Of a stretch of 64,000 nt of DNA, positions 24,193 to 63,600 are shown one piece after another. The notes beneath the pieces are model-generated. The model was given only the letters and a program-made list of their open reading frames with translations, did not search any database and was not told where the DNA came from. Within the stretch, counting starts at the first letter, position 1, and each line of letters starts with the position of its first letter. Origin of the DNA: an uncultured bacterium (GTDB lineage: Bacteria > Hinthialibacterota > Hinthialibacteria > OLB16); NCBI GenBank assembly GCA_964422415.1, contig CAYRBI010000003.1, positions 10,607 through 74,606 on the forward strand. Reading direction: 5' to 3'. Both the position numbers and the translations under genes were made by a program.

Positions 24193-26213
24193 CCACGTGC
24201 CTGCGTGGCCTGAGCCTTTCTCGCTTCTTCATAACGCGGCTCAAACTGTTCGAGGTACTCGCCCTGTGCCTTGGCGCGCGCCGCCTCGGTGGTCCGTCCC
24301 AGATCATAGAGCAGACGGCTCCGATGGAGGTGGTAGTTGTATTTGACGGGATGCAATGCGATGGCCTGATCGATCTCTTGAAGCGCCTCCTCGCGTCTAT
24401 CCATGCGCGCAAGCACCTCGGCCAGGCTATCATGAAGAAAGCCCGCTGTGGGATTCCAATAGAGCGCGGTGCGCATGCTCCGCTCCGCATCAGGCAAGTT
24501 CCCTATATCCAACAACATCTCACCCAGATAGGAGTGGGCCTCGGCCAGTGGCGGCCAGACCAAAACCGCGCGTTCCAACAAGCGGCCAGTCCGGGGGACA
24601 TCCCGCTGCCTCTCAAAACTATCCGCCGCCTTCTCATAAAGGGCCTGCCCGGCCTCACGAAAAGCACAGGGAATCCCCACTGCTAGAAGGACAATGACGA
24701 CAAGACACGGACGGAGGTGCGAATTGTATGTATCTCCAGGCTGTAATTCTGTTGTTCGCCGGGGGTAAGGTAACGGCAGCTCATCATTCATACAATCTTT
24801 AATGCCGCCACCCCCGGTCCCTGGTGTTGGAGGTTCTTTCTTCATCATCCACCGGGGGCGGTGGCATTGCATCGTAAGCAGACGATTGAAAAACGTTGCC
24901 TTGCCCCCGGCTAACAACAGATTACGGAATGTACCATTGGAACGAGAAAGGATTCTCGTTCCAGCGATGCCGCAGCTGTCCGGCTCCCCCCCCATCCCCG
25001 CGATCACCCCCACAAAACCGGCCAGGTAGAGCATATCCTGATGAAATCCCAGCAATGTTGAAATGAAGAAACAGACCAGAGCGCTGGAGCACCAGACATC
25101 CAAGAGGGTACTCCCACGGAGTGGCAAATTCATTCGCCATACGCGGCGAAAGAACTGAAAAAGCACGATCAACAACAGTACCAATCCCACCGCCCCCATA
25201 TCCGCCATCGTCTCAATCAACAGATTGTGAGCATAGACGGTCTGATGAGTGGTGAGATCACGGAATCTGGGATAATTCGAGCCATACCCTCCGATACCGA
25301 AACCGAGGAGGGGGTTCTCGCGCGCCATACGCAGCCCTGCCTCCCAAAAGACCAGCCGTGCATGAACCGTCTCGGTCCTTGAGAGCATCTCGCGCCCGGT
25401 AGGAGACAGACACAGAACTGTAGCCCCCAGGAAGATGGCGAGGATGACTGCCCAGACCATTCGCATGCCACCTTTCCCCTTCCAAGCCAGCCAGACACAG
25501 ATACCCGCAAACAAGCCCACCAGCGAGGTTCGTGAACGGGTTCCCAATAGGATGTAGACCTGCTCGCACGCCGAAACCAGGCTACCCATGATAAAAACCC
25601 GGGCAGATCGAGAACGCCAGGCCCTCTCCAATAAGACCGGCGTGGCCAACAGGCTCAGACTCAGAAACACCCCCAGGTCGATGGGATTGCCAAAAGGGAA
25701 ATGAAAGCGGTTCTGCGAAGCTGCATGGAGGATGGCTTGCTTGTAGCCCTCATCGTACATCTCCCCCTGAAGGCTTTCCTCCATGACCTCCACCGGGACA
25801 GTCCAGATCGGGTTCACGACCGCGATTGCCGTGGCCAGCCCCCACAGGAGCAAGCAGAAAGCCCAAGGAAAACTGGGCACATGGCGGCACAACTCATGGG
25901 TGATCAGACCGAGTATCAAGGCACATCCCCAGGCCATAAGCAGACCGAAACTCCGGTCCCATTCCGGGGTACGGAGAACCTGAAAAAGAATCCAGGCCCC
26001 GAGCGCCAAGGGTGGCCAGGAGATCCGCCAGTTCACCGCAGCCACCGGGAGCACCCACAATCCCAGTACAAGGGTAGCGGTAAAGAACAGAAACCTTCCC
26101 CAGAAGAACCAGGCTCCCATGATCTCAATGAAGGGGAGGACACAGATAAGGACGAGCAGGAACGAAGCCTGGATCCAACGCTGAAAGGGAGTGCCAAGAG
26201 ATCCGATGGGCAT
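24189..26213 (-). CDS. O-antigen ligase (Wzy_C) family membrane protein fused to C-terminal TPR repeats
   Basis: About 12 TM helices with the Wzy_C block GFGIGGYGSNYPRFRDLTTHQTVYAHNLLIETMADMGAVG. The C-terminal roughly 170 aa are TPR-like. The stop overlaps the comEC start. Confidence 0.75.
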   Translation of the reverse strand: MPIGSLGTPFQRWIQASFLLVLICVLPFIEIMGAWFFWGRFLFFTATLVLGLWVLPVAAVNWRISWPPLALGAWILFQVLRTPEWDRSFGLLMAWGCALILGLITHELCRHVPSFPWAFCLLLWGLATAIAVVNPIWTVPVEVMEESLQGEMYDEGYKQAILHAASQNRFHFPFGNPIDLGVFLSLSLLATPVLLERAWRSRSARVFIMGSLVSACEQVYILLGTRSRTSLVGLFAGICVWLAWKGKGGMRMVWAVILAIFLGATVLCLSPTGREMLSRTETVHARLVFWEAGLRMARENPLLGFGIGGYGSNYPRFRDLTTHQTVYAHNLLIETMADMGAVGLVLLLIVLFQFFRRVWRMNLPLRGSTLLDVWCSSALVCFFISTLLGFHQDMLYLAGFVGVIAGMGGEPDSCGIAGTRILSRSNGTFRNLLLAGGKATFFNRLLTMQCHRPRWMMKKEPPTPGTGGGGIKDCMNDELPLPYPRRTTELQPGDTYNSHLRPCLVVIVLLAVGIPCAFREAGQALYEKAADSFERQRDVPRTGRLLERAVLVWPPLAEAHSYLGEMLLDIGNLPDAERSMRTALYWNPTAGFLHDSLAEVLARMDRREEALQEIDQAIALHPVKYNYHLHRSRLLYDLGRTTEAARAKAQGEYLEQFEPRYEEARKAQATQARG

Positions 26214-29350: not shown

Positions 29351-29397
29351 CCCCGCGGGCCCACCTTCCGCATAGTCCACTGAGCTGGGGGTGCAGT

Positions 29398-29480
29398 AAT
29401 GGATTGCCGCTTTCGCGGGAATGTCGATCCACAGTGGACATCCCTCACACTGTCATTCCCGCGAAGGCGGGAATCCATAT
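29398..29480. mobile_element. MITE-like palindromic element, degenerate copy (family of three copies in this window)
   Basis: aatggattgccgctttcgcgggaatgtcg ... tgtcattcccgcgaaggcgggaatccatatg. The inverted arms match the 86-bp elements at 35778 and 62052. It sits in the 159-bp gap between the ABC ATPase and permease genes. Confidence 0.7.
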
Positions 29481-29509
29481 GAATCCACAGGTTTCTCTTC
29501 ATCATAGGA

Positions 29510-30193
29510 CTACTGGATTTCAGAGACTCGTCCATTATGGAGATAGAAGGTCCGGTTCGTGTGTTTGGACAGGTCCGGGTTGTGTGTGACCAACACAAAG
29601 GTCAGCTGCCGTTCCGCACGGAGTTTGTCGAGGAGTTGGATGACCCGGTCGGCGGTCTCCTCATCCAGGCTACCGGTAGGTTCATCAGCCAACACCAGGG
29701 GCGGCTCTTTGGCCAGCGCACGTGCGATGGCAACCCGCTGTTGTTCACCCCCTGAGAGTTGCTCCGGGAACTTCCAGGCCTTGTCCATCAGGTCCACCTC
29801 CGCGAGGTACTCCTCGGCCATAGAGCGGGCCTTTCGTTGGGGGATCCCGGCCGCCTCTGGCCCCATCATGACATTCTCCAGGGCGGTCAGTGTTGGCATA
29901 AGGTTGTAGAACTGAAAGATGAAGCCGACTTTTTCACGCCGGAAACGGGTATACCCGGCGTTGTCCTTGAGATCGAGACGTTCCCCACAGACCTCCACAG
30001 TTCCAGCGGTGGGACGGTCAATCGCGCCGAGGATATTCAGGAGCGTGGATTTTCCCGAACCAGAGACACCCCGGATAGCGACCGATTCTCCAGCGGAGAT
30101 GGAAAGATCCACATCCTTGAGCACCTCCACCGAAGTCTCACCAAGGGTATATGTTCTGCGTACATCTTGAAGGGATATAATGAAATCTGACAT
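29510..30193 (-). CDS. ABC transporter ATP-binding protein (MacB/LolD-like)
   Basis: Walker A GVSGSGKSTLLNILG, ABC signature LSGGEQQRVAIARAL, Walker B LVLADEPTGSLD, and an H-loop. Confidence 0.9.
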   Translation of the reverse strand: MSDFIISLQDVRRTYTLGETSVEVLKDVDLSISAGESVAIRGVSGSGKSTLLNILGAIDRPTAGTVEVCGERLDLKDNAGYTRFRREKVGFIFQFYNLMPTLTALENVMMGPEAAGIPQRKARSMAEEYLAEVDLMDKAWKFPEQLSGGEQQRVAIARALAKEPPLVLADEPTGSLDEETADRVIQLLDKLRAERQLTFVLVTHNPDLSKHTNRTFYLHNGRVSEIQ

Positions 30194-32374: not shown

Positions 32375-35300
32375 TCAGGAGATTGACGAAATAGGAGAGC
32401 CGGGCGGTGTGGTAAACAAATCCGCCTGGCGCTCGATAACCACAACGGCTCTTATCCCACGCAGGCTCTTGAGCCGGTCTAGAAGAACTGTGGAGGGGAC
32501 TACCCGTGGCGACCCAAGCCGCGAGATCAGACGCCGCACCCCTGACCGCTTGATGATCCCCGCGCCGTTCTCAAAAACAAGAGGAATTCCTCGTTCTCCA
32601 CCGGAAAACCATCGTAAAAAGAGAGAGAGTTGTTCGAGTACCTCGGCGGTGGAGTCCTCCAAGACCACCTTAATTTGACTCCAAGACTCACTGGCATTCC
32701 CTAACAGCGCGGGTGTTTCGCATTCCCGCAACAGATACTGGGGGAGGCCCTGCCCGGTGTAGGGGCGCGAACGGACTTCACAGAAGAGCGGCCAAGGCTC
32801 TTTGAGGTGCATCCGGTAGCCATCCAGCCGCGCGGCCTCTGGGATTGGATGAGGGAGAAGGCTGAGCACCTTGCCGGATTCATCCACCACCCGGTAGACA
32901 GTCTCTTGGTTGAAAAGAAGGAAGGTCACCCAAGGTGATTGGGACACACCACCCGGTTGCGGTTCTCCCGCGGTAGCGAACACATCCACCTCATGGACCC
33001 AGCCCATTTGAAGCCAATCCGGCTGCCTGGCAAGACCCCCCTCAGCAAACCATTCCTGGGGAAACCATTCCCGGAAAGGCTCAAGTGGATTCTGGATGAT
33101 TCCCAGGCGCAACAGGCTGAGTTCGAGGTGTTCCTCGTGATGCAGGCTTAAACTATCCGGACCAACAATGGCGGCCGTTGTTGAATGGGCTTGCCCGGGG
33201 CGGACAGGGAAGAGGGTTTGCTGCGCGGCCCCACCGCCCTGAGCACGCAAGGAGAGGTGCCGGGCGCGGGCCTCGGTAAGGAGTGCTCCGGTGTTATGGC
33301 CGAAAGGCTCGAAAACACCCAGACGGATCAGTTGTGAAAGGAGGTTCCAACTCAGCCGGTGTTCAGGCCAGGACTTGAGCCATTCCTCCCACGAGAGATC
33401 CGGTACCGTTGGGGGCGGCTGGAATAGATCCCGTAAACCACCCCCCTGCAAAGAGCTGGGATAGGATGCCTCCAGGTCCATGGAAATCTGCGGTCCCACC
33501 CCAAGGATATTCTGTGTCCCCAAACGAAGCTGCCCTGTAGATGGTGAGAAATCATAACGCCCACCCGGAACCGCGCGAGGCGGGTCGAGCCGCGTGCCGC
33601 GCGCTCTCAGCAGGCTGTAGAGTTCACGGCGATCCTCGGTTTCACCGGGATAGAGGTAAGACAGGATCGCAGTCATTGCCGCGGGATCCCGCGCAAAGGC
33701 ATCGGCCATGGCCAGCAGCTGCTCAGCCTTCCTTAAAAACTCAGGACGGGATGGAAGGGGGTTGGGATTACCCAGGAACTGGACCACCGTTTCCCTTGTG
33801 TTCCGGTCCCACACATGTTGATCCCGGCTGGAGACCGGGTCCGGTTGCGGCCCCCCCTCTTCCAGGGAGAGCCACAGATCCATCTCCTCCGCTGTCAGGC
33901 GAAGAGCAGCGGTTCCCACCTGGTGGATCTGCTCCCGGTAGAGGAGCCAACCTCCCGTTCCTTGAGTGAACCGTTCCAAAGCTGCGCCAACATCCCCACG
34001 GATCCTGGCATCGAGGCCACTCTCATCAGCGGATCTGGTCCAATCCTCCCACCAGGGAGGCACTCCTCCTTCGGAGCGGAGAGGGTGTTCTCTTTGGACT
34101 GCGATCAGACGCAGATTCTCCCGCTGGGTCCAGAAGGACCAATGCCAGGCTAAAGCGAGCAGGTCCGCCAGCTCACCAATGAATGTGGGCATGGCCGCAC
34201 AGATCCACCTCCAGAGGAGCGGACGGTAACCAGTGGAACCGGGAATGGTCAACAGGCGCAGGAGCGATGCTGAAAGGCCGAGAACCTCGATCTTGCCAGT
34301 GTCATCCGCATACCCCTGATCCCGGAAGACCTCGCCGCGATGCTTCTCGATCCAGGTGGTAATCGATTCACGGGATTCTTCGCGGCGGGGCAGGACCGGG
34401 ACAGTGTCCCGGTAAAACGGCGCGCAGGAGAGGGTCTGAGTATTCGATGCCAAGAGCCGCAGAACCAAGGTTCCCACGGTCAGGGCATCGATGGGGTCTG
34501 TGTCCAATTCTGGATACCCGGTTTTCGCGGGCGCGAACACCTGTTCGAGGTTGACCGCAGAGACAATCAGCGAGGCCGGAGCATCACTGGAGGTGGAGCC
34601 TCCCCCTTGATCCAGGAAAGATGGGAGTGGAGGAAGCTTATCCGGGGGATCACCGGGAAATTCCAGATCCTCCCAGTGGGCAAGCAAACGGTAGCCAGCA
34701 TGGACAAGATCCTCATGGTCATCTGGGGCGGGAGCCGCGAAGCCACATCTTCCTTTCCCCAACAGAGCATTGAGAGACGCGAGTACCTCCTGCTCCCATT
34801 GGTGAGGGCAATCCACCTCGACTGGAGCATGAAGAGAGTCTTGAACTCCAGGATGGAAGGAGATGCCTTCATGGTAGGGATCGACACGGGTCAGGCCGAG
34901 GAGATGCGCGAAGAGCGAGGAGGTGGTCCATTCAGCTGTAGGCCGGAGTGTCCCCGGTGGCAGCCCCAGCCGCTTACGAACATCCCACAGGAGAAGCCAC
35001 ACAGTGGGCCAGCGGGTCTGTTTGAGGTATTGGAATTCTTCGACCAGCCGCTCCTTGACCCCTTCCCGGCGGATATGACCGGTGGCGATGGCGGTTTCCT
35101 GACCTAGGGTCCAAAAGAAGGAGGCGGCATCGGTACCCCGTGGAACCGGGTAGACCGGGAAGGTCAAACCACTGTGTTGATAGGGATCGAAGGGTTTGGC
35201 GGTCAGCTTCTCGACACCACGGAAGGCAGGAGTAAGCCCTTGCAGGAGCCTTACCACCCGCTCCGCATGGGGAATACGCCCTGGCAGATCTCTTGAACTG

Positions 35301-36163
35301 GTGACATTTCCCTGCCCCGTAAGCCGTGCGGCACATCCCCAGAAACGGTCATGCTGTGTCCGGTAGGCGGCTTGTACACACGCGAGCGGCGGAATTGGAA
35401 GAGGCGACCGGGAGGGAGAGGTTGTGGCGGTTTCTATAATCCCACCCGTTCGTGAATCAAAACAACAGAGACCTACTTGATCATGTGGCCACTGTTCCAG
35501 AAATGTGGACATCCAAGCAAAGCGTTCTCTGTCTGCACGGTTGGTAGGAATCCGTTGAAGAGCTGATCCAGCCAATCCCGCCACCAGGAAAACTCCCTCA
35601 CAGAAATTCAAAAGAACCTCGGGATGAACACCCTTTTCCGCCGATAGATCCCAGGCTTGTTTGATCTTGAGCAGATTCCGGAAGCCGGCATGGTTGACCG
35701 CAAGCAGGGCGGCCCGCTCACAAGCACAAGCTGGAGTACCATTAGCAATCCGTTGAATAACTCTTTGTTCTTTTGGCACCATGGATTCCCGCCTTCGCGG
35801 GAATGACGATTTCCGAAGAATTTCGCTTATTCTGTCATTCCCGCGAAGGCGGGAATCCATGGTCACGTTCTCTTTCAACAGGCTGTTGGGGGACAGTAAG
35901 AGATCGAAGACATCGGGACTCCGGATCTCTGCTAGGCCTGAAGGGGGTGTAATGAGAACTGTCATCCCGGCCAGACCCAGCATGTGGTTTCTGGCGCAGG
36001 CCTCCAGGAAGCTTGGTCCTCCCTGGAGGGTACCCGTGTCCACCAACGCGGCTACACGGTAGCCCACCTCGGCGGCCGCCTGGACCAGCAGGTTGGGTGG
36101 CACAATCCCCCCCATACGGTCATGGGAGGACTGTAACAGGATAAGGGGCCCATGGTTTGGCAT
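32375..36163 (-). CDS. DNA polymerase III alpha (DnaE)-like protein with degenerate PHP and palm catalytic motifs (putative pseudo-polymerase)
   Basis: PHP-like N-terminus: [46 protein letters not shown] against the DnaE sequence [54 protein letters not shown] aligns with LLATNNTGYQNL. The palm block is [24 protein letters not shown] against [22 protein letters not shown]. The PDFDxDF site reads HAPVEVDCP, and FDFLGL reads IEVLGL. There are no stops across 3.8 kb. The start is set at the internal ATG at 36163, which has AAGGA 10 nt upstream. Confidence 0.55.
   Translation of the reverse strand: [1262 protein letters not shown]
35778..35863. mobile_element. 86-bp MITE-like palindromic element inserted in-frame in the DnaE-like ORF
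   Basis: accatggattcccgccttcgcgggaatgacgatttcc ... gtcattcccgcgaaggcgggaatccatggt. The 30-bp inverted arms are near-identical to the copy at 62052-62137. It translates (minus strand) to ...[28 protein letters not shown]... inside the PHP-like region. Confidence 0.75.
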
Positions 36164-36317
36164 ACACGGGAATCCTTGGGAAAAGGGAGCAAAATGACAA
36201 GACACCCCCATTCCCATATACTGCTCGAGCCGGTATAGTCACTTTCAACACCGGGCCCATGAGGATGCAGGATTTCCCCATGCGGCTCAAGACAGGCCGA
36301 TTTCCCCGGAGTAAAAA

Positions 36318-37307
36318 ATGGCAACCAAACGTACCAAAGACCAGAAAGGCACCTGGGTCACCTACCGTCCCGATATCAAGGTAATGGACTGCACGGTCCG
36401 GGATGGTGGCCTGATTAACAACCACAACTTCGAGGACTCTTTTGTCCGCGCGGTCTACCAAACATGTGTCGCCGCGGGTATCGACTACATGGAAATCGGC
36501 TACAAAGGAGCCCAGCGCCTCTACTCCCCCACCGAGCATGGCAAGTGGAAGCATTGCAGCGAAGACGACCTGCGCCGCATCATGGATGACAATCCGGCCA
36601 ATCTGAAAATTTCAGCCATGGCCGACGCGGACCGGTGTGATTACCACGTGGATATTCTCCCCAAAAAGGAGAGCGTCCTCGATATGATCCGCGTGGCCTG
36701 CTACATCAATCAGATCCCCACCGCGATCGACATGGTCAAAGATGCCACCGATAAGGGGTATGAAACCACAGTCAACATCATGGCGGTCTCGACAGTCCAT
36801 GAAAAAGACCTGCTGGAAGCCCTCGAGGTCCTGGCCGAAACCCCCGTCGGCTCGGTGTACATTGTGGACAGCAACGGCGCCCTTTATTCAGAGGAAATCC
36901 AGGATCTCACACGTCAATTCCGCCGGGCCTTGAATGGGACGGATAAACTAGTGGGGATCCACGCCCACAACAATCAACAATTAGCCTACGCCAACACCAT
37001 CGAGGCCATTGTTTGTGGGGCGAGTATGCTCGATGCAACCATCAACGGTATGGGACGTGGCGCGGGGAACTGTCCGCTCGAACTGCTCATCGGATTCCTG
37101 CACAATCCGAAATTTAAGCTGCGTCCCATCTTGGAGTGCATTCAAAACGTATTTCTTCCCATGCGGGACAAGATGGAGTGGGGGTATCAGCTGGCCTATA
37201 TGGTCACTGGCCAGCTCAACCAACACCCACGCTATGCCATTAAGGTACGTGAGAGTTCAACCCCGGATGATATTGTCGGTTTTTACGACCAAATGACAAA
37301 CGATTAA
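36318..37307 (+). CDS. HMGL-like (pyruvate carboxyltransferase domain) aldolase, 4-hydroxy-2-oxovalerate aldolase-like
   Basis: DCTVRDGGL resembles the DCTLRDGxQ metal-site motif. The C-terminal GIHAHNNQQLAYANTIEAIVCGASMLDATINGMGRGAGNCPLE matches the HMGL-like signature. Confidence 0.7.
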   Translation: MATKRTKDQKGTWVTYRPDIKVMDCTVRDGGLINNHNFEDSFVRAVYQTCVAAGIDYMEIGYKGAQRLYSPTEHGKWKHCSEDDLRRIMDDNPANLKISAMADADRCDYHVDILPKKESVLDMIRVACYINQIPTAIDMVKDATDKGYETTVNIMAVSTVHEKDLLEALEVLAETPVGSVYIVDSNGALYSEEIQDLTRQFRRALNGTDKLVGIHAHNNQQLAYANTIEAIVCGASMLDATINGMGRGAGNCPLELLIGFLHNPKFKLRPILECIQNVFLPMRDKMEWGYQLAYMVTGQLNQHPRYAIKVRESSTPDDIVGFYDQMTND

Positions 37308-37324
37308 TTACTGGAGGATCCCTG

Positions 37325-38050
37325 GTGCTGATGAGAAATCTTAGTCTGGCTATGCTTGTTTCACTCTCCGCCGTGTCTTTCGCGCAAGGCGAGGGGGAAA
37401 AGGCCAAACCCATCCAGCAGGCTTGCACCTTTGAGAAAGAGGTGAAGGTGACCCTGCATTACCTGCTCTACCTGCCAGAAGATTATGACAAGGATCCGAA
37501 CAAGAAGTGGCCCATGATTTTGTTCCTGCATGGAGCGGGCGAGCGTGGAAATGATCTGGAAAAGGTCAAGAAGCATGGCCCACCGAAGATGATCGCCGAG
37601 GGGTCGAAATTTCCCTTCATCGTGGTTTCTCCGCAGTGTCCCGATGACCGGTGGTGGGATACCGATAGCCTCTTCCTTCTACTAGATGAGATCCAAGACA
37701 AGTACCGGGTCGACAAGAACCGGACCTATCTGACAGGGATAAGCATGGGCGGTTTCGGAAGTTGGGACATGGCCAGCAAACAGCCTGAGCGTTTCGCTGC
37801 AATCGCTCCCATCTGTGGCGGTGGTAATCCCTTCTTCGGACCGCGTTTGAAAACTGTGCCGATCTGGGTTTTTCATGGTGGCAAGGACAGTGTGGTCCCC
37901 TTGCAGAAATCACAGGAGATGGTGGATGCGGTCAAGAACGCCGGTGGCGATGTGAAGTTCACGGTCTACCCAGACGCCGATCATGACTCCTGGACTGAGA
38001 CCTACAACAACCCAGATCTTTACGAGTGGTTTTTGAAACACTCGCGGTGA
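37325..38050 (+). CDS. secreted alpha/beta-hydrolase (esterase / phospholipase-carboxylesterase family)
   Basis: Signal peptide MLMRNLSLAMLVSLSAVSFAQG. The nucleophile elbow is GISMGGFGS. LFLHGAGERG and a late HGGKDSVVP...DHDSW suggest a catalytic triad. Confidence 0.7.
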   Translation: MLMRNLSLAMLVSLSAVSFAQGEGEKAKPIQQACTFEKEVKVTLHYLLYLPEDYDKDPNKKWPMILFLHGAGERGNDLEKVKKHGPPKMIAEGSKFPFIVVSPQCPDDRWWDTDSLFLLLDEIQDKYRVDKNRTYLTGISMGGFGSWDMASKQPERFAAIAPICGGGNPFFGPRLKTVPIWVFHGGKDSVVPLQKSQEMVDAVKNAGGDVKFTVYPDADHDSWTETYNNPDLYEWFLKHSR

Positions 38051-38093
38051 TTTTTTTAAATAACCTCGCACTCTTGCTGGGTGCGAAGTCCTT

Positions 38094-38148
38094 CTCCCCC
38101 CCACCCCAACCCTCCCCCGCCAGGGGGGAGGGTTGGGGTGGGGGGGAG
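38094..38148. repeat. long C-rich/G-rich perfect hairpin (REP-like; possible terminator)
   Basis: ctcccccccaccccaaccctccccc-gcca-ggggggagggttggggtgggggggag, about 44 bp after the esterase stop and 44 bp before the MBOAT start. Related hairpins occur at 40764-40863. Confidence 0.7.
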
Positions 38149-38191
38149 GTTTACAGGATTTAAATAAGAGACCAATCCCCCTTCCTCCTCC

Positions 38192-39625
38192 ATGACCTTT
38201 AACTCTTTCACTTTTGTTTTCTTCTTTCTGATTGTCTACTCGCTCTACCTGATTCTCAACCATCGCGGGCAGAACCGGATGCTCCTGGTAGCGAGCATTA
38301 TCTTTTATGGCTGGTGGGACTGGCGCTTTCTCTCCCTGTTGTTTGTCTCGATCGGGATTGATTATGTATGCGGGTTGGGGATGGGATCGACAGAATCTCC
38401 CACGAAACGGCGCCTCTATCTCCTGATTGCAGTGTGCGGTGATCTAGGAATTCTATTCTTTTTCAAATACTTCAATTTTTTCCTGGAAACGGGGGCCGAG
38501 TTTCTCACCTTCCTGGGATTTCAGGCTCATCCCAAAACCCTAGGGATCATCCTCCCCATCGGGATTTCCTTTTACACCTTCCAGGCCATGAGCTACACCA
38601 TCGATGTCTACCGGCGGGAGACTCAACCGATCCGTAGTATCGCGGATTTCTGCTTGTACATCCTGTTCTTTCCCCAGCTGGTGGCTGGCCCCATCGAGCG
38701 TTCCACCAACCTGCTGCCCATGATCTTGAAGGAGCGGAGTTTAAATTGGCCGCAATTCAGGGCGGGGCTTTCGTTGATACTGATGGGGTATTTCAAGAAG
38801 ATCGTGGTGGCCGACAACCTGGCGCCAGTGGTGGATTCCGTCCTGGATTCTCCCGGCGTAATGCTTCTTTCTGGGGTAAATATCCTGATCGGGGTATATG
38901 CCTTCGCCTTTCAGATCTATGGTGATTTCGCGGGTTACAGCGATATCGCACGGGGAATGGCCAAGATGATGGGCTTTGAGCTGATGCTCAACTTCAACCG
39001 CCCGTATTTCGCCACCAATCCCTCGGATTTCTGGCGCCGTTGGCACATCAGCCTCTCCACCTGGCTGCGGGATTATCTCTACATTCCACTGGGCGGCAGC
39101 CGCCATGGAACCTTCGCCACCTACCGCAACCTCATGGTCACGATGGTGCTGGGGGGACTCTGGCATGGCGCGGCCATCCATTTCGTCCTGTGGGGTTTTT
39201 ACCATGGTCTCCTCTTGGTCCTCTACCGTCCGGTGGCCAATGGAATCACCCGTTTGACATCGGGATTGCCCACACTGTGGAGACAACCACTGACAGTTGT
39301 CTCGATGATCTTCATGTTCCACTTGAGCTGCTATGGCTGGCTGCTTTTCCGTGTGTCCACCTGGCGGCGGATTGGGATCATGACCAACCACCTCTTCACC
39401 CAATTCTCTCCAGGCACGATCCACCTGCCCTTCGTGGCTCCACTCCTGTACTTCGCGCTCCCACTCCTGCTCTATGAAATTATGCTGGAATCGAAAGCCC
39501 GGCCAGGTGGCCCACACCAGCCTATTCCAGTCTGGCTGAACAGTCTGATGCATGTGTACATGTTCACGATGATCCTGTGTCATGGAGTTTTGGAAGGTGC
39601 CCAGTTCATCTATTTTCAGTTTTGA
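38192..39625 (+). CDS. MBOAT-family membrane-bound O-acyltransferase (AlgI/DltB-like)
   Basis: 477 aa, polytopic. The conserved MBOAT block FWRRWHISLSTWLRDYLYIPLGGSRHG includes the catalytic His. Confidence 0.85.
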   Translation: MTFNSFTFVFFFLIVYSLYLILNHRGQNRMLLVASIIFYGWWDWRFLSLLFVSIGIDYVCGLGMGSTESPTKRRLYLLIAVCGDLGILFFFKYFNFFLETGAEFLTFLGFQAHPKTLGIILPIGISFYTFQAMSYTIDVYRRETQPIRSIADFCLYILFFPQLVAGPIERSTNLLPMILKERSLNWPQFRAGLSLILMGYFKKIVVADNLAPVVDSVLDSPGVMLLSGVNILIGVYAFAFQIYGDFAGYSDIARGMAKMMGFELMLNFNRPYFATNPSDFWRRWHISLSTWLRDYLYIPLGGSRHGTFATYRNLMVTMVLGGLWHGAAIHFVLWGFYHGLLLVLYRPVANGITRLTSGLPTLWRQPLTVVSMIFMFHLSCYGWLLFRVSTWRRIGIMTNHLFTQFSPGTIHLPFVAPLLYFALPLLLYEIMLESKARPGGPHQPIPVWLNSLMHVYMFTMILCHGVLEGAQFIYFQF

Positions 39626-59652: not shown

Positions 59653-60759
59653 GTGGTACGGGCCGCGTATTATGTCGATTCGCATGGTTTCGGCCATGCC
59701 ACGCGCTCCATGGCTCTGGCCGAGGCACTCCCCTCCTCCTGGGAGGTGGTGTTCAAAACCAACGCGCCGGAGTGGTTGTTCCGGAAGGAACTCGCCCGGC
59801 CCTACATGCATGTGGCCTCACCGCTCGATATCCACCCCGTACATACCACCTCCTACTTCATCGATCCCCTGGGCACATTCCAGCACACACAAGCCAAACT
59901 CCAGGGCTTGGAAGACCTTGTCCAGAACGAGGTGGCTTGGCTGCGGAAATCCAAGGTGGATGTGGTCATCGCTGATATCCCGCCCTTGGCGATTCATGCC
60001 GCGAAATGCGCTGGCCTTCCCGCTTTTGGAGTGAGCAACTTCACTTGGGATTGGATCTTCAAGCCTCTCTTGGATGGAATAAGTGGCAAACAAGTGATTG
60101 CCACGATGCGGAATATGACCGCCCAGGCCACTGCCAACTTCCGTCTGCCCTTCTCCACCCCAGAGACTTTTCCAGGGGGTTCCATCGAATCCCCACTTCT
60201 GGTGCGCTCGGTCCGTATGAGTCGCGAGGAAGCCCGTAAACACTACGGCCTGACTGTAGGAACCACCTATGTCCTGGTCACATTTGGGGGGATCGAGGGT
60301 CCGGTAAAGAGCCTGGCTCCTCTGATGGATTTTCAACCCCTCCAGTTCGTGAGCGTGGCGAAGGAATCCGGGAATGGACCTCCTCTGGAACAGGGCCTCT
60401 TCCGCCACCCGGAGATCACCAACCTCTGGATTCTCCGGCGCGATGACCTCTATCACCCCGATCTGGTCAATGCGATTGACGCGGTGGTGACCAAGCCGGG
60501 TTACGGGATCCTCTCGGAGTGCATGGCTACCGCCACCCCCATCATCCTGGATGCACGAGATGATTTCCGTGAGTTCATGGCCGTCCGCGCCACAGCGGAG
60601 AGGTACCCTCAAATGGCAATTGTAGACAATGCCCAAATGAAACGGCTCGATCTCGGTGATCCCCTCGCCAAGGTCTTGAATAGCCCAGCACAGCCATGGG
60701 AGGGAGGTCTCAACGGCGCTGAGTTTGTCGCGGGAATCATTGCTGGACATTTTCATTAG
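59653..60759 (+). CDS. GT-B fold glycosyltransferase (MJ1255/UDP-glycosyltransferase-like family)
   Basis: The N-terminus YYVDSHGFGHATRSMALAEAL is the characteristic start of this GT-B family. The C-terminal donor-binding half carries VVTKPGYGILSECMA. The antisense 372-aa ORF is judged a shadow ORF. Confidence 0.6.
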   Translation: MVRAAYYVDSHGFGHATRSMALAEALPSSWEVVFKTNAPEWLFRKELARPYMHVASPLDIHPVHTTSYFIDPLGTFQHTQAKLQGLEDLVQNEVAWLRKSKVDVVIADIPPLAIHAAKCAGLPAFGVSNFTWDWIFKPLLDGISGKQVIATMRNMTAQATANFRLPFSTPETFPGGSIESPLLVRSVRMSREEARKHYGLTVGTTYVLVTFGGIEGPVKSLAPLMDFQPLQFVSVAKESGNGPPLEQGLFRHPEITNLWILRRDDLYHPDLVNAIDAVVTKPGYGILSECMATATPIILDARDDFREFMAVRATAERYPQMAIVDNAQMKRLDLGDPLAKVLNSPAQPWEGGLNGAEFVAGIIAGHFH

Positions 60760-60868
60760 GGCAAGAAAACGCAAGATATTGCCCGGTAAACCTTCCTTTT
60801 TCCAATTGACACCCCCATCTGGAATCTCGATGCTATCAGTTGTTAATTCTCTCAGAGAGGAGCTGTGT

Positions 60869-62008
60869 ATGCATCGTTTCGTTGTCCTGACTCTATTGTT
60901 GGCTTCAATGGCCATGGCCCAGGACCCAGCGCTCAAGTTCGAGCGTACACGTATTGGCCAAGTGACTTATGAGGCGTGTTCCATTTTTGATGTTAACAAG
61001 GATGGTTCTCTCGACATTGTGAGTGGCGAATATTGGTTTCAAGGTCCCGAGTTCACACACTCGCATAAGATCTGCGACATCATGCCCGCCGCCGACTACT
61101 ACGATGATTTCTCGAACTACCCACTGGATGTAAATGGTGATGGATACCTTGACATCGTCACTGGTGGATGGTGGGGAGAATCCCTCCAATGGCGCGAAAA
61201 CCCCAAGGGGCAGAACGTAGAATGGAAAACTCACCTCATTGAGAAGTGCGGGAATGTCGAGACCACCCGTTTCTGGGATGTGGATGGCGATGGAATTGTG
61301 GAAGCCGTCCCCAATGCAGGCGGCAATGTAGCCTTCTACAAGCTCATCACGGATACGAATGGTAAGGGGACCGGAGAGTTCAAGAAATACATGGTCAAAC
61401 AGGGTGAGTGTGGCCATGGCCTTGGTTATGGCGATGTAAATGGCGATGGCCGTGGTGACTTTATCGTCCCCGATGCCTGGATCGAAGCCCCCACCGATGT
61501 CCTCAATGGAAAGTGGACCTGGCATCCTGAGTTTCAACTCGGTACAGCCAGCATTCCGGTCCTGGTGTTTGATGTCAATGAAGACGGGAAGGCCGATCTG
61601 ATCTCAGGCGCGGCCCATCCATATGGCTTAGCTTGGTGGGAGCAGGGTCAAGGCGCGGATGGAAAACGGACCTGGACCAAACATGACATCGACCCTGACC
61701 GTTCCCAGTATCATGACCTGGTTCTGGCGGACATTGACAACGATGGCAAGCAGGAAATGCTCACCGGTAAACGTTACCGGGCCCACTGTGGACATGATCC
61801 CGGTTGGACTGATCCAGTGGGTGTCTATTACTTCAACATCGACGGTGGCAAATTCGAACGTGTGACTCTCGATTACGGCCCGGCGGACAAAGCCAGCGGC
61901 GCGGGTATTTATATGTGGGTCGAAGACATCGATGGTAATGGCTGGAAAGATGTACTCGCCCCGGGTAAGGAAGGACTCTATCTGTTCAAGAACATGGGGC
62001 AGATGTAA
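60869..62008 (+). CDS. secreted FG-GAP / VCBS-repeat beta-propeller protein
   Basis: Start at the ATG at 60869, with GAGAGGAG 7 nt upstream, giving the signal peptide MHRFVVLTLLLASMAMAQD. There are seven Ca-binding-loop-like repeats (DVNKDGSLDIV, DVNGDGYLDIV, DVDGDGIVEAV, DVNGDGRGDFIV, DVNEDGKADLI, DIDNDGKQEML, DIDGNGWKDVL). Confidence 0.75.
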   Translation: MHRFVVLTLLLASMAMAQDPALKFERTRIGQVTYEACSIFDVNKDGSLDIVSGEYWFQGPEFTHSHKICDIMPAADYYDDFSNYPLDVNGDGYLDIVTGGWWGESLQWRENPKGQNVEWKTHLIEKCGNVETTRFWDVDGDGIVEAVPNAGGNVAFYKLITDTNGKGTGEFKKYMVKQGECGHGLGYGDVNGDGRGDFIVPDAWIEAPTDVLNGKWTWHPEFQLGTASIPVLVFDVNEDGKADLISGAAHPYGLAWWEQGQGADGKRTWTKHDIDPDRSQYHDLVLADIDNDGKQEMLTGKRYRAHCGHDPGWTDPVGVYYFNIDGGKFERVTLDYGPADKASGAGIYMWVEDIDGNGWKDVLAPGKEGLYLFKNMGQM

Positions 62009-62051
62009 CAGGTCTTCAGCGGTCTATTGAAAAAAAAACAGTTGCGATGAG

Positions 62052-62137
62052 ACCATGGATTCCCGCTTTCGCGGGAATGACGATTTCCATTAAAAATCCC
62101 CTGATCCGTCATTCCCGCGAAAGCGGGAATCCATGGT
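62052..62137. mobile_element. 86-bp MITE-like palindromic element, intergenic copy
   Basis: accatggattcccgctttcgcgggaatgacgatttccattaaaaatcccctgatccgtcattcccgcgaaagcgggaatccatggt. It has the same length and terminal inverted repeats as the copy at 35778. It lies 44 bp after the FG-GAP gene stop. Confidence 0.8.
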
Positions 62138-62262
62138 CGCGGGACTTTCCCAACCAACGGATAGGGCAGTAGTTGGCCTTTACAGGCTCAGAATCTTGAC
62201 CCCCTCACCCATCACAATGAGTGAGGGGGTCTTTTCATATACACAATCGGGCTCATATACCG

Positions 62263-63600
62263 CTACTCGGAAACTTGAACCACTTGTAACATGCTTGGTT
62301 CCGGCCATGGCGGTTCCCTGGGGCGATCCCGGTTCGGCCCTAATGTTTCCCAACGCAGTTGGTAACGGGTACCCGGCTTGCCGGAACTGCCCAGGTCCTT
62401 GGCCCACCTGACAGCCATGCCGGGGAAGGCTGAGTGAACCGTGCCCGGAATCCGCGGCGCTGATTTCTCGTTTTCTGTTTTCATCACTGTGAGATCCTCT
62501 TCATCAAGTGTCCATACCCCGCTCCCCTCTTTCGCGTGATGGTACCCCAAAGTCAGGCCCCGCTCTGGCGAGTAATGGACTGGCTCCATCTTGATTTCGA
62601 AGTTGATCGTTCCCCCACCAGAGAACTCCCAACGGTAGTTCCACTGACTGGTCTGACGGATAGCCCAGTTGCCGTCCTCCAACCGGGCGGTGAACACCTG
62701 GGTTTTTCCATTCGCATCGTATTTGTGATACGTGAGAATGGGCCGGTTCTGGCTGTCAAACCCAATGGTGTGATTCCCATTCAAGATCCCGCCACCTGGC
62801 GGCACCGGATCGACGATATCCCCGGTCTCAAGGGTGATGGGTAGCGTCAGCGGCTCCCCATTGCTCTTTTCCCAATGGATGAGGTCTTTGCTGCGCGCAT
62901 AGGACAGGTGGTGGTTGCTGGCGCAATCGGGCGTGTCACGCCACACCCAGCACAAGTGGTAATATCCATCTGGACCAACAATGGGCCCATTAAAATACGC
63001 GTTCATGAGGCCTTGGCCATCTGTCAGTGGAGTATCAAGCAAACGGCGCCAAGTCTGCGCGGAGGCATCGTAGATGTTGTAGATCTGATTCCCGGAGCCA
63101 CTTTGTCCATCCCGGTAAGTGAAGACCAAGGCTCCATCCGGCCCAGAAAAGAACTTCGGATAGGTGACCTTCGTTTCTTCGCTTCCAGTCATGCTTGACA
63201 CTCGTTCGAAGGTGGAAAAGTCACGCGGCTCGCGGGTCCGGAAATATACGAGTGGCACGCAGTGCATGTTGCCCGACAGGTGAATCCGTCCCGTGCTGTC
63301 CATGACCATGGTCACGTAATTATGGCTATCCCAGACCAACTGTTCTGGAAGGCGGAACAGACGCCACTCCTTCGAGTCCAGTGTGCGTTGGCCCACAGTC
63401 ATTTTCCGGTCCGCATCATAAAATGCTACGAATTGATCGTTGCCATCCGTTAAGAGGCAGAAACCAACCATGTGGCCGGCCCATACCGGGGCTACATCGA
63501 CTACCTCGACTGATCCCTCCGCGTGTGCACCAGATATCCAGCAGGCAGCCTGCACCATCCCCCACACAAGAAGTACATAAAGAACACCAGGACATCGCAT
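62263..63600 (-). CDS. secreted beta-propeller-like hypothetical protein (possibly BNR-4-type family)
   Basis: 445 aa with the signal peptide MRCPGVLYVLLVWGMVQAACWISGAHA. It is Trp/Gly/Asp-rich and beta-rich with sialidase-like repeat character. Family assignment is tentative. Confidence 0.5.
   Translation of the reverse strand: MRCPGVLYVLLVWGMVQAACWISGAHAEGSVEVVDVAPVWAGHMVGFCLLTDGNDQFVAFYDADRKMTVGQRTLDSKEWRLFRLPEQLVWDSHNYVTMVMDSTGRIHLSGNMHCVPLVYFRTREPRDFSTFERVSSMTGSEETKVTYPKFFSGPDGALVFTYRDGQSGSGNQIYNIYDASAQTWRRLLDTPLTDGQGLMNAYFNGPIVGPDGYYHLCWVWRDTPDCASNHHLSYARSKDLIHWEKSNGEPLTLPITLETGDIVDPVPPGGGILNGNHTIGFDSQNRPILTYHKYDANGKTQVFTARLEDGNWAIRQTSQWNYRWEFSGGGTINFEIKMEPVHYSPERGLTLGYHHAKEGSGVWTLDEEDLTVMKTENEKSAPRIPGTVHSAFPGMAVRWAKDLGSSGKPGTRYQLRWETLGPNRDRPREPPWPEPSMLQVVQVSE

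Follow-up and report, generated by a model that had tools for sequence, protein, structure and literature searches.

A palindromic repeat with Neisseria Transformation Sequence-type hairpins, probably inserted in frame in a divergent DnaE-like gene

The Rickettsia palindromic elements (RPE) are palindromic repeats of ~150 bp, which are found in frame in unrelated housekeeping genes and add a peptide segment that is compatible with the fold of the protein (PMC10969869). The Neisseria Transformation Sequence (NTS) is a hairpin-forming repeat of 28 nt (CGTCATTCCCGCGMAVGCGGGAATCYRG), which encompasses the dRS3 repeat (ATTCCC-N8-GGGAAT), and a degenerate Ssn-related motif (SRM) was defined along with it (PMC11893778). 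The NTS hairpin is cut in single-stranded DNA (ssDNA) by the GIY-YIG nuclease SsnA, and NTS-ssnA-NTS cassettes and SRM expansions are present across bacteria (PMC11893778, Nat Commun 2025). In our study, we examined a stretch of 64,000 nucleotides (contig CAYRBI010000003.1 of the GenBank assembly GCA_964422415.1, positions 10,607 to 74,606; hereafter the window), which contained a palindrome at nucleotides 35778–35863 within a DnaE-like gene. We consider it likely that a non-autonomous palindromic element of ~150 bp, similar to the miniature inverted-repeat transposable elements (MITE), was inserted in the coding sequence of this divergent gene, where it is in frame and tolerated.

The host gene was found on the minus strand (32375–36163) and encodes a divergent DnaE-like protein of 1262 aa with a PHP-like N-terminal domain. 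The gene is intact over its full length and the element occupies residues ~92/94–141. The open reading frame (ORF) runs from 32375 to 36217 (minus strand), with its likely start at the ATG at 36163 (MPNHGPL...), which is preceded by AAGGA. A preliminary description of the locus, made from the letters of the window, had the element translated in the coding frame; the peptide it quoted was correct, whereas its strand had to be corrected to the minus strand. The product of the ORF was 100% identical to the database protein P0001, and 11 homologues (P0002–P0012) shared 34–65% identity with it. The segment that contains the element was missing from the alignment in all 11 homologues, including two syntenic orthologues, and is therefore an insertion. 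The two closest homologues are true orthologues, since the genes next to them in L001 and L002 are the divergently transcribed HMGL-like, esterase, and MBOAT genes that are also found at 36318–39625 of the window. The window protein contained 60 residues separating the conserved DVFDL motif from the E..LLA strand whereas the two orthologues compared at the DNA level contained 12, and the gain over the orthologues was 48 aa, equal to 144 nt. Counted from the ATG at 36163, the conserved block GMTVLI begins at residue 66 and the block LLAVNH at residue 153, which places them ~80 aa apart; the corresponding blocks of the closest orthologue begin at residues 66 and 105. The reading frame was co-linear with the orthologues on either side of the element. 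The wide spacing of the blocks and the continuity of the frame had both been read correctly in the preliminary description. The alignment makes a gain in the window lineage far more parsimonious than a loss in every known homologue. Loss in the relatives was rejected, as it needs a loss in 11 of the 11 homologues, yet the same sequence is a dispersed repeat elsewhere.

The core palindrome of this copy (copy 1; 35778–35863, no strand) is 86 bp long, at the coordinates first given for it. Its two arms of 30 nt (35778–35807 and 35834–35863) are 100% complementary and are separated by a spacer of 26 nt (35808–35833, no strand), the sequence of which is weakly conserved among the copies. The 86 bp had been taken for the inserted unit itself, and this did not hold; 86 is not divisible by three, and the unit inserted in frame must therefore comprise more than the palindrome. 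Alignment of the three copies present in the window showed weaker outer inverted ends, with CCAACAGCCTGTTGAA... at one end and ...TTCAACGGATTGCTAATGG at the other in the coding orientation, and these outer ends pair weakly with each other (CCAACAGCCTGTTGAA vs CCATTAGCAATCCGTTGAA). The full mobile unit in the host gene accordingly spans ~35739–35889 (minus strand; ~150 bp, with ends given to within a few nucleotides), is in frame, and adds 48 aa. The element peptide of ~50 residues (PNSLLK..VIQRIAN) recurs in P0013, P0014, P0017, P0019, and P0020, as found with an exhaustive HMMER search; a word-indexed search with the 51-aa peptide gave four candidates and missed P0013 and P0014. In these last two, which are large multi-domain proteins, the element lies mid-protein, from residue 408 in P0013 (a Wzy_C protein) and from residue 91 in P0014 (an M56 peptidase). 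The flanks beyond the palindrome (e.g. NSLLKENVT) belong to the element, since unrelated proteins carry them together with it. The shared peptide opens with a codon for P, S, or A (xCC), which suggests that the element starts with CC after a variable host base. The sequence evidence points to a mobile unit of about 144–151 nt, of which the 86-bp palindrome is the core. A metagenome scan with a pattern of outer arm plus inner arm gave 0 matches.

Two database proteins, P0016 (320 aa) and P0018 (432 aa), were found to consist almost wholly of translated hairpin arrays in three frames and are almost certainly annotation artefacts over repeat arrays. An ORF of 93 aa (35781–36062, plus strand), which begins at the element's own ATG and is antisense to the polymerase-like gene, could likewise be called by annotation software; it is very likely spurious.

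A 29-nt pattern of the arm (up to 3 mismatches) gave five matches in the window versus 0.00 expected from 100 dinucleotide-preserving shuffles, which is far beyond chance. The five matches represent three elements, namely copy 1 in the gene, copy 2, and a degenerate copy 3. The core of copy 2 is present at 62052–62137 (no strand; span of ~62016–62175 with the outer arms), in the intergenic region between the convergent ORFs 60725–62008 (plus strand) and 62263–63600 (minus strand). It is the near-identical copy that had been noted at 62052, and it differs from copy 1 by a single C/T difference per arm. Copy 3, which had gone unmentioned, has degenerate arms at ~29397–29481 (no strand) and lies in the spacer (29351–29509) between an ABC ATPase gene and a MacB/FtsX-type permease gene; the orthologous ABC operon in L001 lacks it and has a spacer of 18 nt. 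The repeat is dispersed and was gained in at least two places in the window lineage.

The C/T difference between copies 1 and 2 falls in the loop of the small hairpin and is mirrored across both arms, with the arms remaining 100% complementary, which suggests either separate source copies or the correction of one arm against the other. At the end of copy 3, the ABC ATPase gene (29510–30193, minus strand) takes its stop codon from the element, ending in ..SEIQ* in place of ..SEV*, and the opposite end of the copy puts GGAAGGTGG ~12 nt upstream of the ATG of the permease.

A dispersed repeat of this kind could also have been mis-threaded into the gene during metagenome assembly. An uncultured lineage is the likely source of the window, the homologues being labelled MAG (metagenome-assembled genome), OLB16, and Omnitrophica, and the repeat occurs several times in the window. 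However, the two flanks of copy 1 are parts of one gene that follow each other in order and in frame, with the junctions exactly in the variable loop, whereas mis-joining at a repeat would normally link unrelated flanks. Copy 1 is also no collapsed consensus, since its spacer and outer arms are unlike those in copies 2 and 3. We regard an assembly artefact as extremely improbable.

Each arm of the palindrome holds its own small hairpin, ATTCCCGC-CTTC-GCGGGAAT. The first NTS/SRM hairpin (CGTCATTCCCGCGAAGGCGGGAATCCAT; 35781–35808, minus strand) included the dRS3 pattern ATTCCC-N8-GGGAAT and matched NTS with 1 mismatch and SRM and dRS3 exactly. The second (TGTCATTCCCGCGAAGGCGGGAATCCAT; 35833–35860, plus strand), inverted with respect to the first, matched NTS with 2 mismatches and SRM exactly. 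Three hairpins of the window matched NTS with no more than 1 mismatch, and the SRM pattern was found in 5 of the 6 hairpin arms, the exception being the mutated arm of copy 3. One unrelated SRM match was found at 25420; Markov-simulated sequence contained 0.76 SRM matches per window. Their sequence places the arms in the published NTS/SRM/dRS3 class. Of the MITE reading given earlier, the repeated palindromic element stood, whereas the arms are not a private MITE terminus but the published NTS/SRM hairpin, which is spread across phyla.

The 27-mer ATGGATTCCCGCNTTCGCGGGAATGAC was scanned against one genome per species and was found in at least 120 stretches in Alpha-, Beta-, Gamma-, and Deltaproteobacteria, Chloroflexota, Planctomycetota, Ignavibacteria, Vampirovibrionales, Candidatus Peribacteria, and Candidatus Omnitrophus. 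The matches included Povalibacter, Sphingomonas, and Devosia, which are called SRM-rich genera in PMC11893778. The arm of ~28–33 nt alone was common to the other genomes, and the spacer and outer arms were not shared. Small GIY-YIG genes (PF01541, E 2.7e-10 to 1.8e-15) were present between hairpins (up to 3 substitutions) in the loci L040, L042, and L019. In all three window copies the GTCA ends of the hairpins face inward, and the two hairpins are 26–28 nt apart (26 nt for copies 1 and 2). The opposite arrangement, with GTCA outward, was found in other genomes in 52 of the 82 adjacent hairpin pairs within 1.5 kb, as well as in the GIY-YIG cassettes. Metagenomes contained at least 120 inward-facing cores with spacers of 20–32 nt (modal 28, 25, and 27 nt), and among the matches listed none carried the outer arms of the window element. 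From the cut position relative to NTS reported in PMC11893778, the predicted Ssn cut sites would fall in the 26-nt spacer, as both GTCA ends face it.

The hairpin was also seen outside bacterial genomes and in a described RNA. A 25-nt pattern of the hairpin (GGATTCCCGCNTTCGCGGGAATGAC) was found in at least 120 predicted viral contigs (IMG/VR; L243–L322 and further loci), and phages or prophage regions may help to spread the hairpin between phyla. The stretch 35803–35875 (plus strand) gave a weak Rfam match to the Francisella small RNA FtrB (RF02748), with 23.5 bits versus a cut-off of 66. The published Northern probe for FtrB includes GATTCCCGCCTACGCGGGAATGAC, which is the same hairpin except for its loop, and the original paper described FtrB as confined to Francisella; by sequence, FtrB may be a transcribed copy of an NTS/SRM-type repeat. 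The Rfam scan of the region found no RNA family and, apart from the weak FtrB match, gave sub-threshold generic hairpins alone (miRNA models at 25–36 bits, cut-offs 65–119). A promoter and terminator scan found no terminator-like site at the element; two promoter-like sites upstream, in the intergenic region 36194–36239, are unrelated to it.

The 144-nt unit contained stop codons in 5 of its 6 frames, and the sole open frame is the frame in use. The ORF stays open and co-linear because the net gain is a multiple of three and the only stop-free frame of the six is used. The recognisable copies in other proteins, including the mid-protein copies in P0013 and P0014, use the same frame as the window copy. 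These same-frame copies would fit a filter that keeps stop-free, length-neutral insertions, in a set of peptide copies that is biased towards intact annotated ORFs.

Upstream of the element, residues 1–91 showed 69% and 62% identity to the two orthologues, with ratios of nonsynonymous to synonymous substitution (dN/dS) of 0.22 and 0.19. The same residues gave a dN/dS of 0.23 in the element-free orthologue pair, and the downstream segments gave 0.11–0.15; all these values are rough, as dS exceeds 1 (saturated) and they integrate the history before the insertion. With a dN/dS in residues 1–91 equal to that of the element-free orthologues, the part upstream of the element gives no indication of decay and lends no support to a downstream restart. 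The preliminary description had held that its reading would fall if the upstream PHP-like segment were an untranslated remnant. Translation would in that case restart inside the element at the ATG of the right arm (..GAAGGCGGGAATCC ATG GTG..), giving a product from M128 that lacks ~127 residues. A purine-rich stretch precedes this ATG, each arm has an ATG in CCATGG, GAAGG is present ~9 nt upstream of the second of these, and the annotated start of P0017 lies within or just upstream of its element copy. But residues 1–91 are conserved like the remainder, every homologue with a complete N-terminus keeps the segment, and the frame runs on unbroken from the upstream to the downstream part. The AAGGA motif stands ahead of the ATG at 36163, whereas the predicted 30-bp stem buries the internal ATG together with its Shine-Dalgarno-like stretch. 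A restart within the element is very improbable, and the remnant scenario found no support.

The predicted fold of the element on the mRNA strand is an uninterrupted stem of 30 bp, with a minimum free energy of −66.3 kcal/mol. This very stable duplex bears on a second alternative, in which the insertion inactivated the gene, is stop-free by luck, and is too recent for decay to show, with the mRNA cut by RNase III or the protein misfolded. The cleavage by RNase III of MITE inverted-repeat hairpins in transcripts is documented in Neisseria (PMC10969869), and the fully complementary arms suggest a young insertion. For a unit whose length is divisible by three, a random choice of frame and orientation would be stop-free in 1 of 6 cases, and dN/dS cannot separate the period before the insertion from the period after it. 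Against such a fresh pseudogene, the insertion point is the only loop in the PHP-like domain with variable length and sequence among the homologues, and the model shows it as disordered. At least two further large multi-domain proteins carry the element internally in the same open frame (which fits a tolerance filter, in a set biased to intact ORFs), and the rest of the 1262-aa ORF contains no stop codon or frameshift. We consider a pseudogene improbable and favour a tolerated insertion in a gene that is still translated.

The loop position was examined in the host protein. Curated models of the domains scored below their thresholds (Pfam PHP 19.5 bits, cut-off 26.4; DNA_pol3_alpha 11.7, cut-off 23.9; TIGR00594 24.8, cut-off 434). 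The profile of the family, searched against the sequences of the Protein Data Bank (PDB), matched M. tuberculosis DnaE1 (7pu7, E 1.4e-15) and E. coli Pol III alpha (E 9.3e-13), and an AlphaFold2 model of residues 1–500 (mean predicted local distance difference test, pLDDT, 67) matched Pol III alpha structures in Foldseek (E 5.8e-14). From these sequence comparisons, the host protein is best described as a distant DnaE homologue, not a recognisable DnaE orthologue. With the segment missing from all homologues, these matches bear out the earlier placement of the insertion in the PHP-like domain of a DnaE-like ORF. In the model, residues 78–146 had a pLDDT below 50 (near 30) and were located between the strands 62–71 (GMTVLI) and 149–155 (ERAALLA), with the core otherwise fairly confident. 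The homologues contained variable sequence at the insertion point, with lengths differing by a residue or two. The 48 inserted residues were basic and serine-rich (9 Arg, 3 Lys, 6 Ser; pI 11.5). The structure model had been proposed earlier as a check for a surface loop, and its low-confidence segment between two strands agrees with such a position; the insertion is likely to lie in a surface loop of the PHP-like domain, as modelled.

The host family is very small, with 12 proteins of ~1200 aa found among 5.8 billion sequences, labelled OLB16 and Omnitrophica. In an alignment read by eye, the carboxylate positions of Pol III alpha (PDIDIDF, KFDFLGL) stay Glu or Asp (VEVD, KIEVLGL), and YQEQ is replaced by YREQ.

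The element was compared with the systems described so far. As in the RPE, the window unit is ~150 bp long, is in frame, adds 48 aa in a predicted surface loop, and contributes the same peptide to several unrelated proteins. However, it has no sequence relationship to the RPE, its host is OLB16/Omnitrophica-like and not Rickettsia, and it has NTS/SRM hairpins as arms. Searches of Pfam and NCBIfam with the element peptide in three frames gave no match at E values up to 10, in libraries which we take to contain RPE-domain models. The likeness to RPE drawn in the preliminary description thus stands for the behaviour of an in-frame palindromic insertion and fails for membership of the family; by analogy only, the element may be called RPE-like in behaviour, not in ancestry.

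The NTS/SRM hairpins cut by SsnA resemble the arms of the element, which are within 1–2 mismatches of NTS, match SRM and dRS3 exactly, form hairpins, and are present in many phyla. The arrangement differs: the window pair faces inward, 26 nt apart, inside a unit of ~150 bp, whereas the ssnA cassettes were found in the opposite orientation, and the window lacked an ssnA-like gene in a regular-expression scan. The terms "in-frame," "intragenic," and "within coding" do not occur in PMC11893778. The Neisserial intergenic mosaic elements (NIME) are short RS units bounded by inverted dRS3-type repeats (PMC3898611), which is similar to the window unit, but the NIME form intergenic arrays of 200–2700 bp whereas the window has single units, one of them in a gene and in frame. 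The Correia elements form hairpins in transcripts that are substrates of RNase III, and they can interrupt coding sequences (PMC10969869). In the comparison with NIME and Correia elements, the outer arms and the spacer of the window unit were unrelated to the copies from the other genomes and metagenomes compared. QMITE2 of Coxiella and other MITE are small non-autonomous repeats with inverted ends, which at times lie in frame in ORFs or extend them (PMC5896051). The window family differs from QMITE2, as neither ATTCCC nor GGGAAT is present in PMC5896051, and most QMITE cases hit gene ends or hypothetical ORFs. In agreement with a MITE, the element is ~150 bp long, has three copies in the 64 kb and further copies as peptides in five other proteins, carries inverted repeats (perfect inner arms of 30 nt and weaker outer ends), and has empty sites in relatives (copy 1 in 11 homologues and copy 3 in L001, the relatives being at most 65% identical). 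By contrast, no autonomous relative or transposase with the same ends was found in the window (regular-expression scan and ORF map).

Several points weigh against a tolerated MITE-like insertion. The exact ends are uncertain, as the length based on the terminal inverted repeats is 151 nt versus the gain of 144 nt over the orthologues. The comparison with orthologues, suggested earlier for fixing the boundaries and any target-site duplication, defined the 48-aa insertion, whereas the ends stayed approximate and no convincing duplication emerged; by eye and alignment, with ends that are not base-exact, no convincing direct repeat was found beside any of the three copies. The window contained no ssnA-like GIY-YIG gene, transposase, or autonomous parent element in a regular-expression scan and an ORF map, which are not a profile search. 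The nearest element-free orthologue is just 65% identical, which leaves the timing of the insertion unconstrained and provides no empty site from the same species. The sequence probably comes from a metagenome-assembled genome, in which a repeat-induced assembly error is formally possible. Translation through the hairpin of −66 kcal/mol is argued from the sequence, with dN/dS values that cover the history before and after the insertion at dS above 1. The structural model is mediocre (mean pLDDT 67) and is based on an alignment of 12 sequences.

The proposed element would consist of two inverted NTS/SRM hairpins of the dRS3 type, 26 nt apart, within weaker outer inverted ends. It would have landed in a loop between two beta-strands of the PHP-like domain that was already variable in the family. 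The gene would still be translated from its normal start, and the product would gain a basic (pI ~11.5), disordered surface loop of 48 residues. The insertion is probably recent, since its arms are still perfect while those of copy 3 have decayed, and we regard it as most probably a passenger that the gene tolerates, with a neutral or mildly harmful effect, and not as an adaptation. At the RNA level, the 30-bp duplex in the mRNA could slow translation, lower expression, or attract RNase III, as for the Correia elements. At the DNA level, each of the two hairpins would be a potential ssDNA target of an Ssn-type GIY-YIG nuclease, should the genome contain a gene for one; such a nuclease, judging from the cut position in PMC11893778, would cut both strands within the spacer when they are single-stranded. 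The most likely agent of movement would be a hairpin-recognising enzyme acting in trans, such as an Ssn-like GIY-YIG nuclease or a dRS3-targeting recombinase.

The in-frame palindromic insertion is a clear case, but of a kind of event that is already known, and the tie between Ssn-type hairpins and RPE-like coding insertions is a modest addition to knowledge, not a new kind of system. The locus provides a well-documented case outside Rickettsia of a palindromic repeat that has become part of a protein, and links it to the recently characterised target motif of SsnA. The locus holds two lessons for annotation: a peptide such as VIPAKAGIH is the sign of a translated hairpin repeat, of which some database "proteins" wholly consist, and the palindrome first noted at this locus is only the core of a longer unit. 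The host gene, very divergent and with few relatives, may merit more attention than the insertion. The finding raises the question of whether Ssn-type hairpins are spreading as small mobile units that are tolerable in coding regions. It is a doubtful, though not negligible, proposition that inverted pairs of Ssn-type hairpins are the core of a coding-compatible, RPE-like mobile family, moved in trans across phyla by hairpin-recognising enzymes such as the GIY-YIG Ssn nucleases. If this were true, the Ssn/NTS system would be transposon-like and would add loops to proteins in frame besides modulating transformation, and the present locus would be an example caught in the act in an uncultured phylum.

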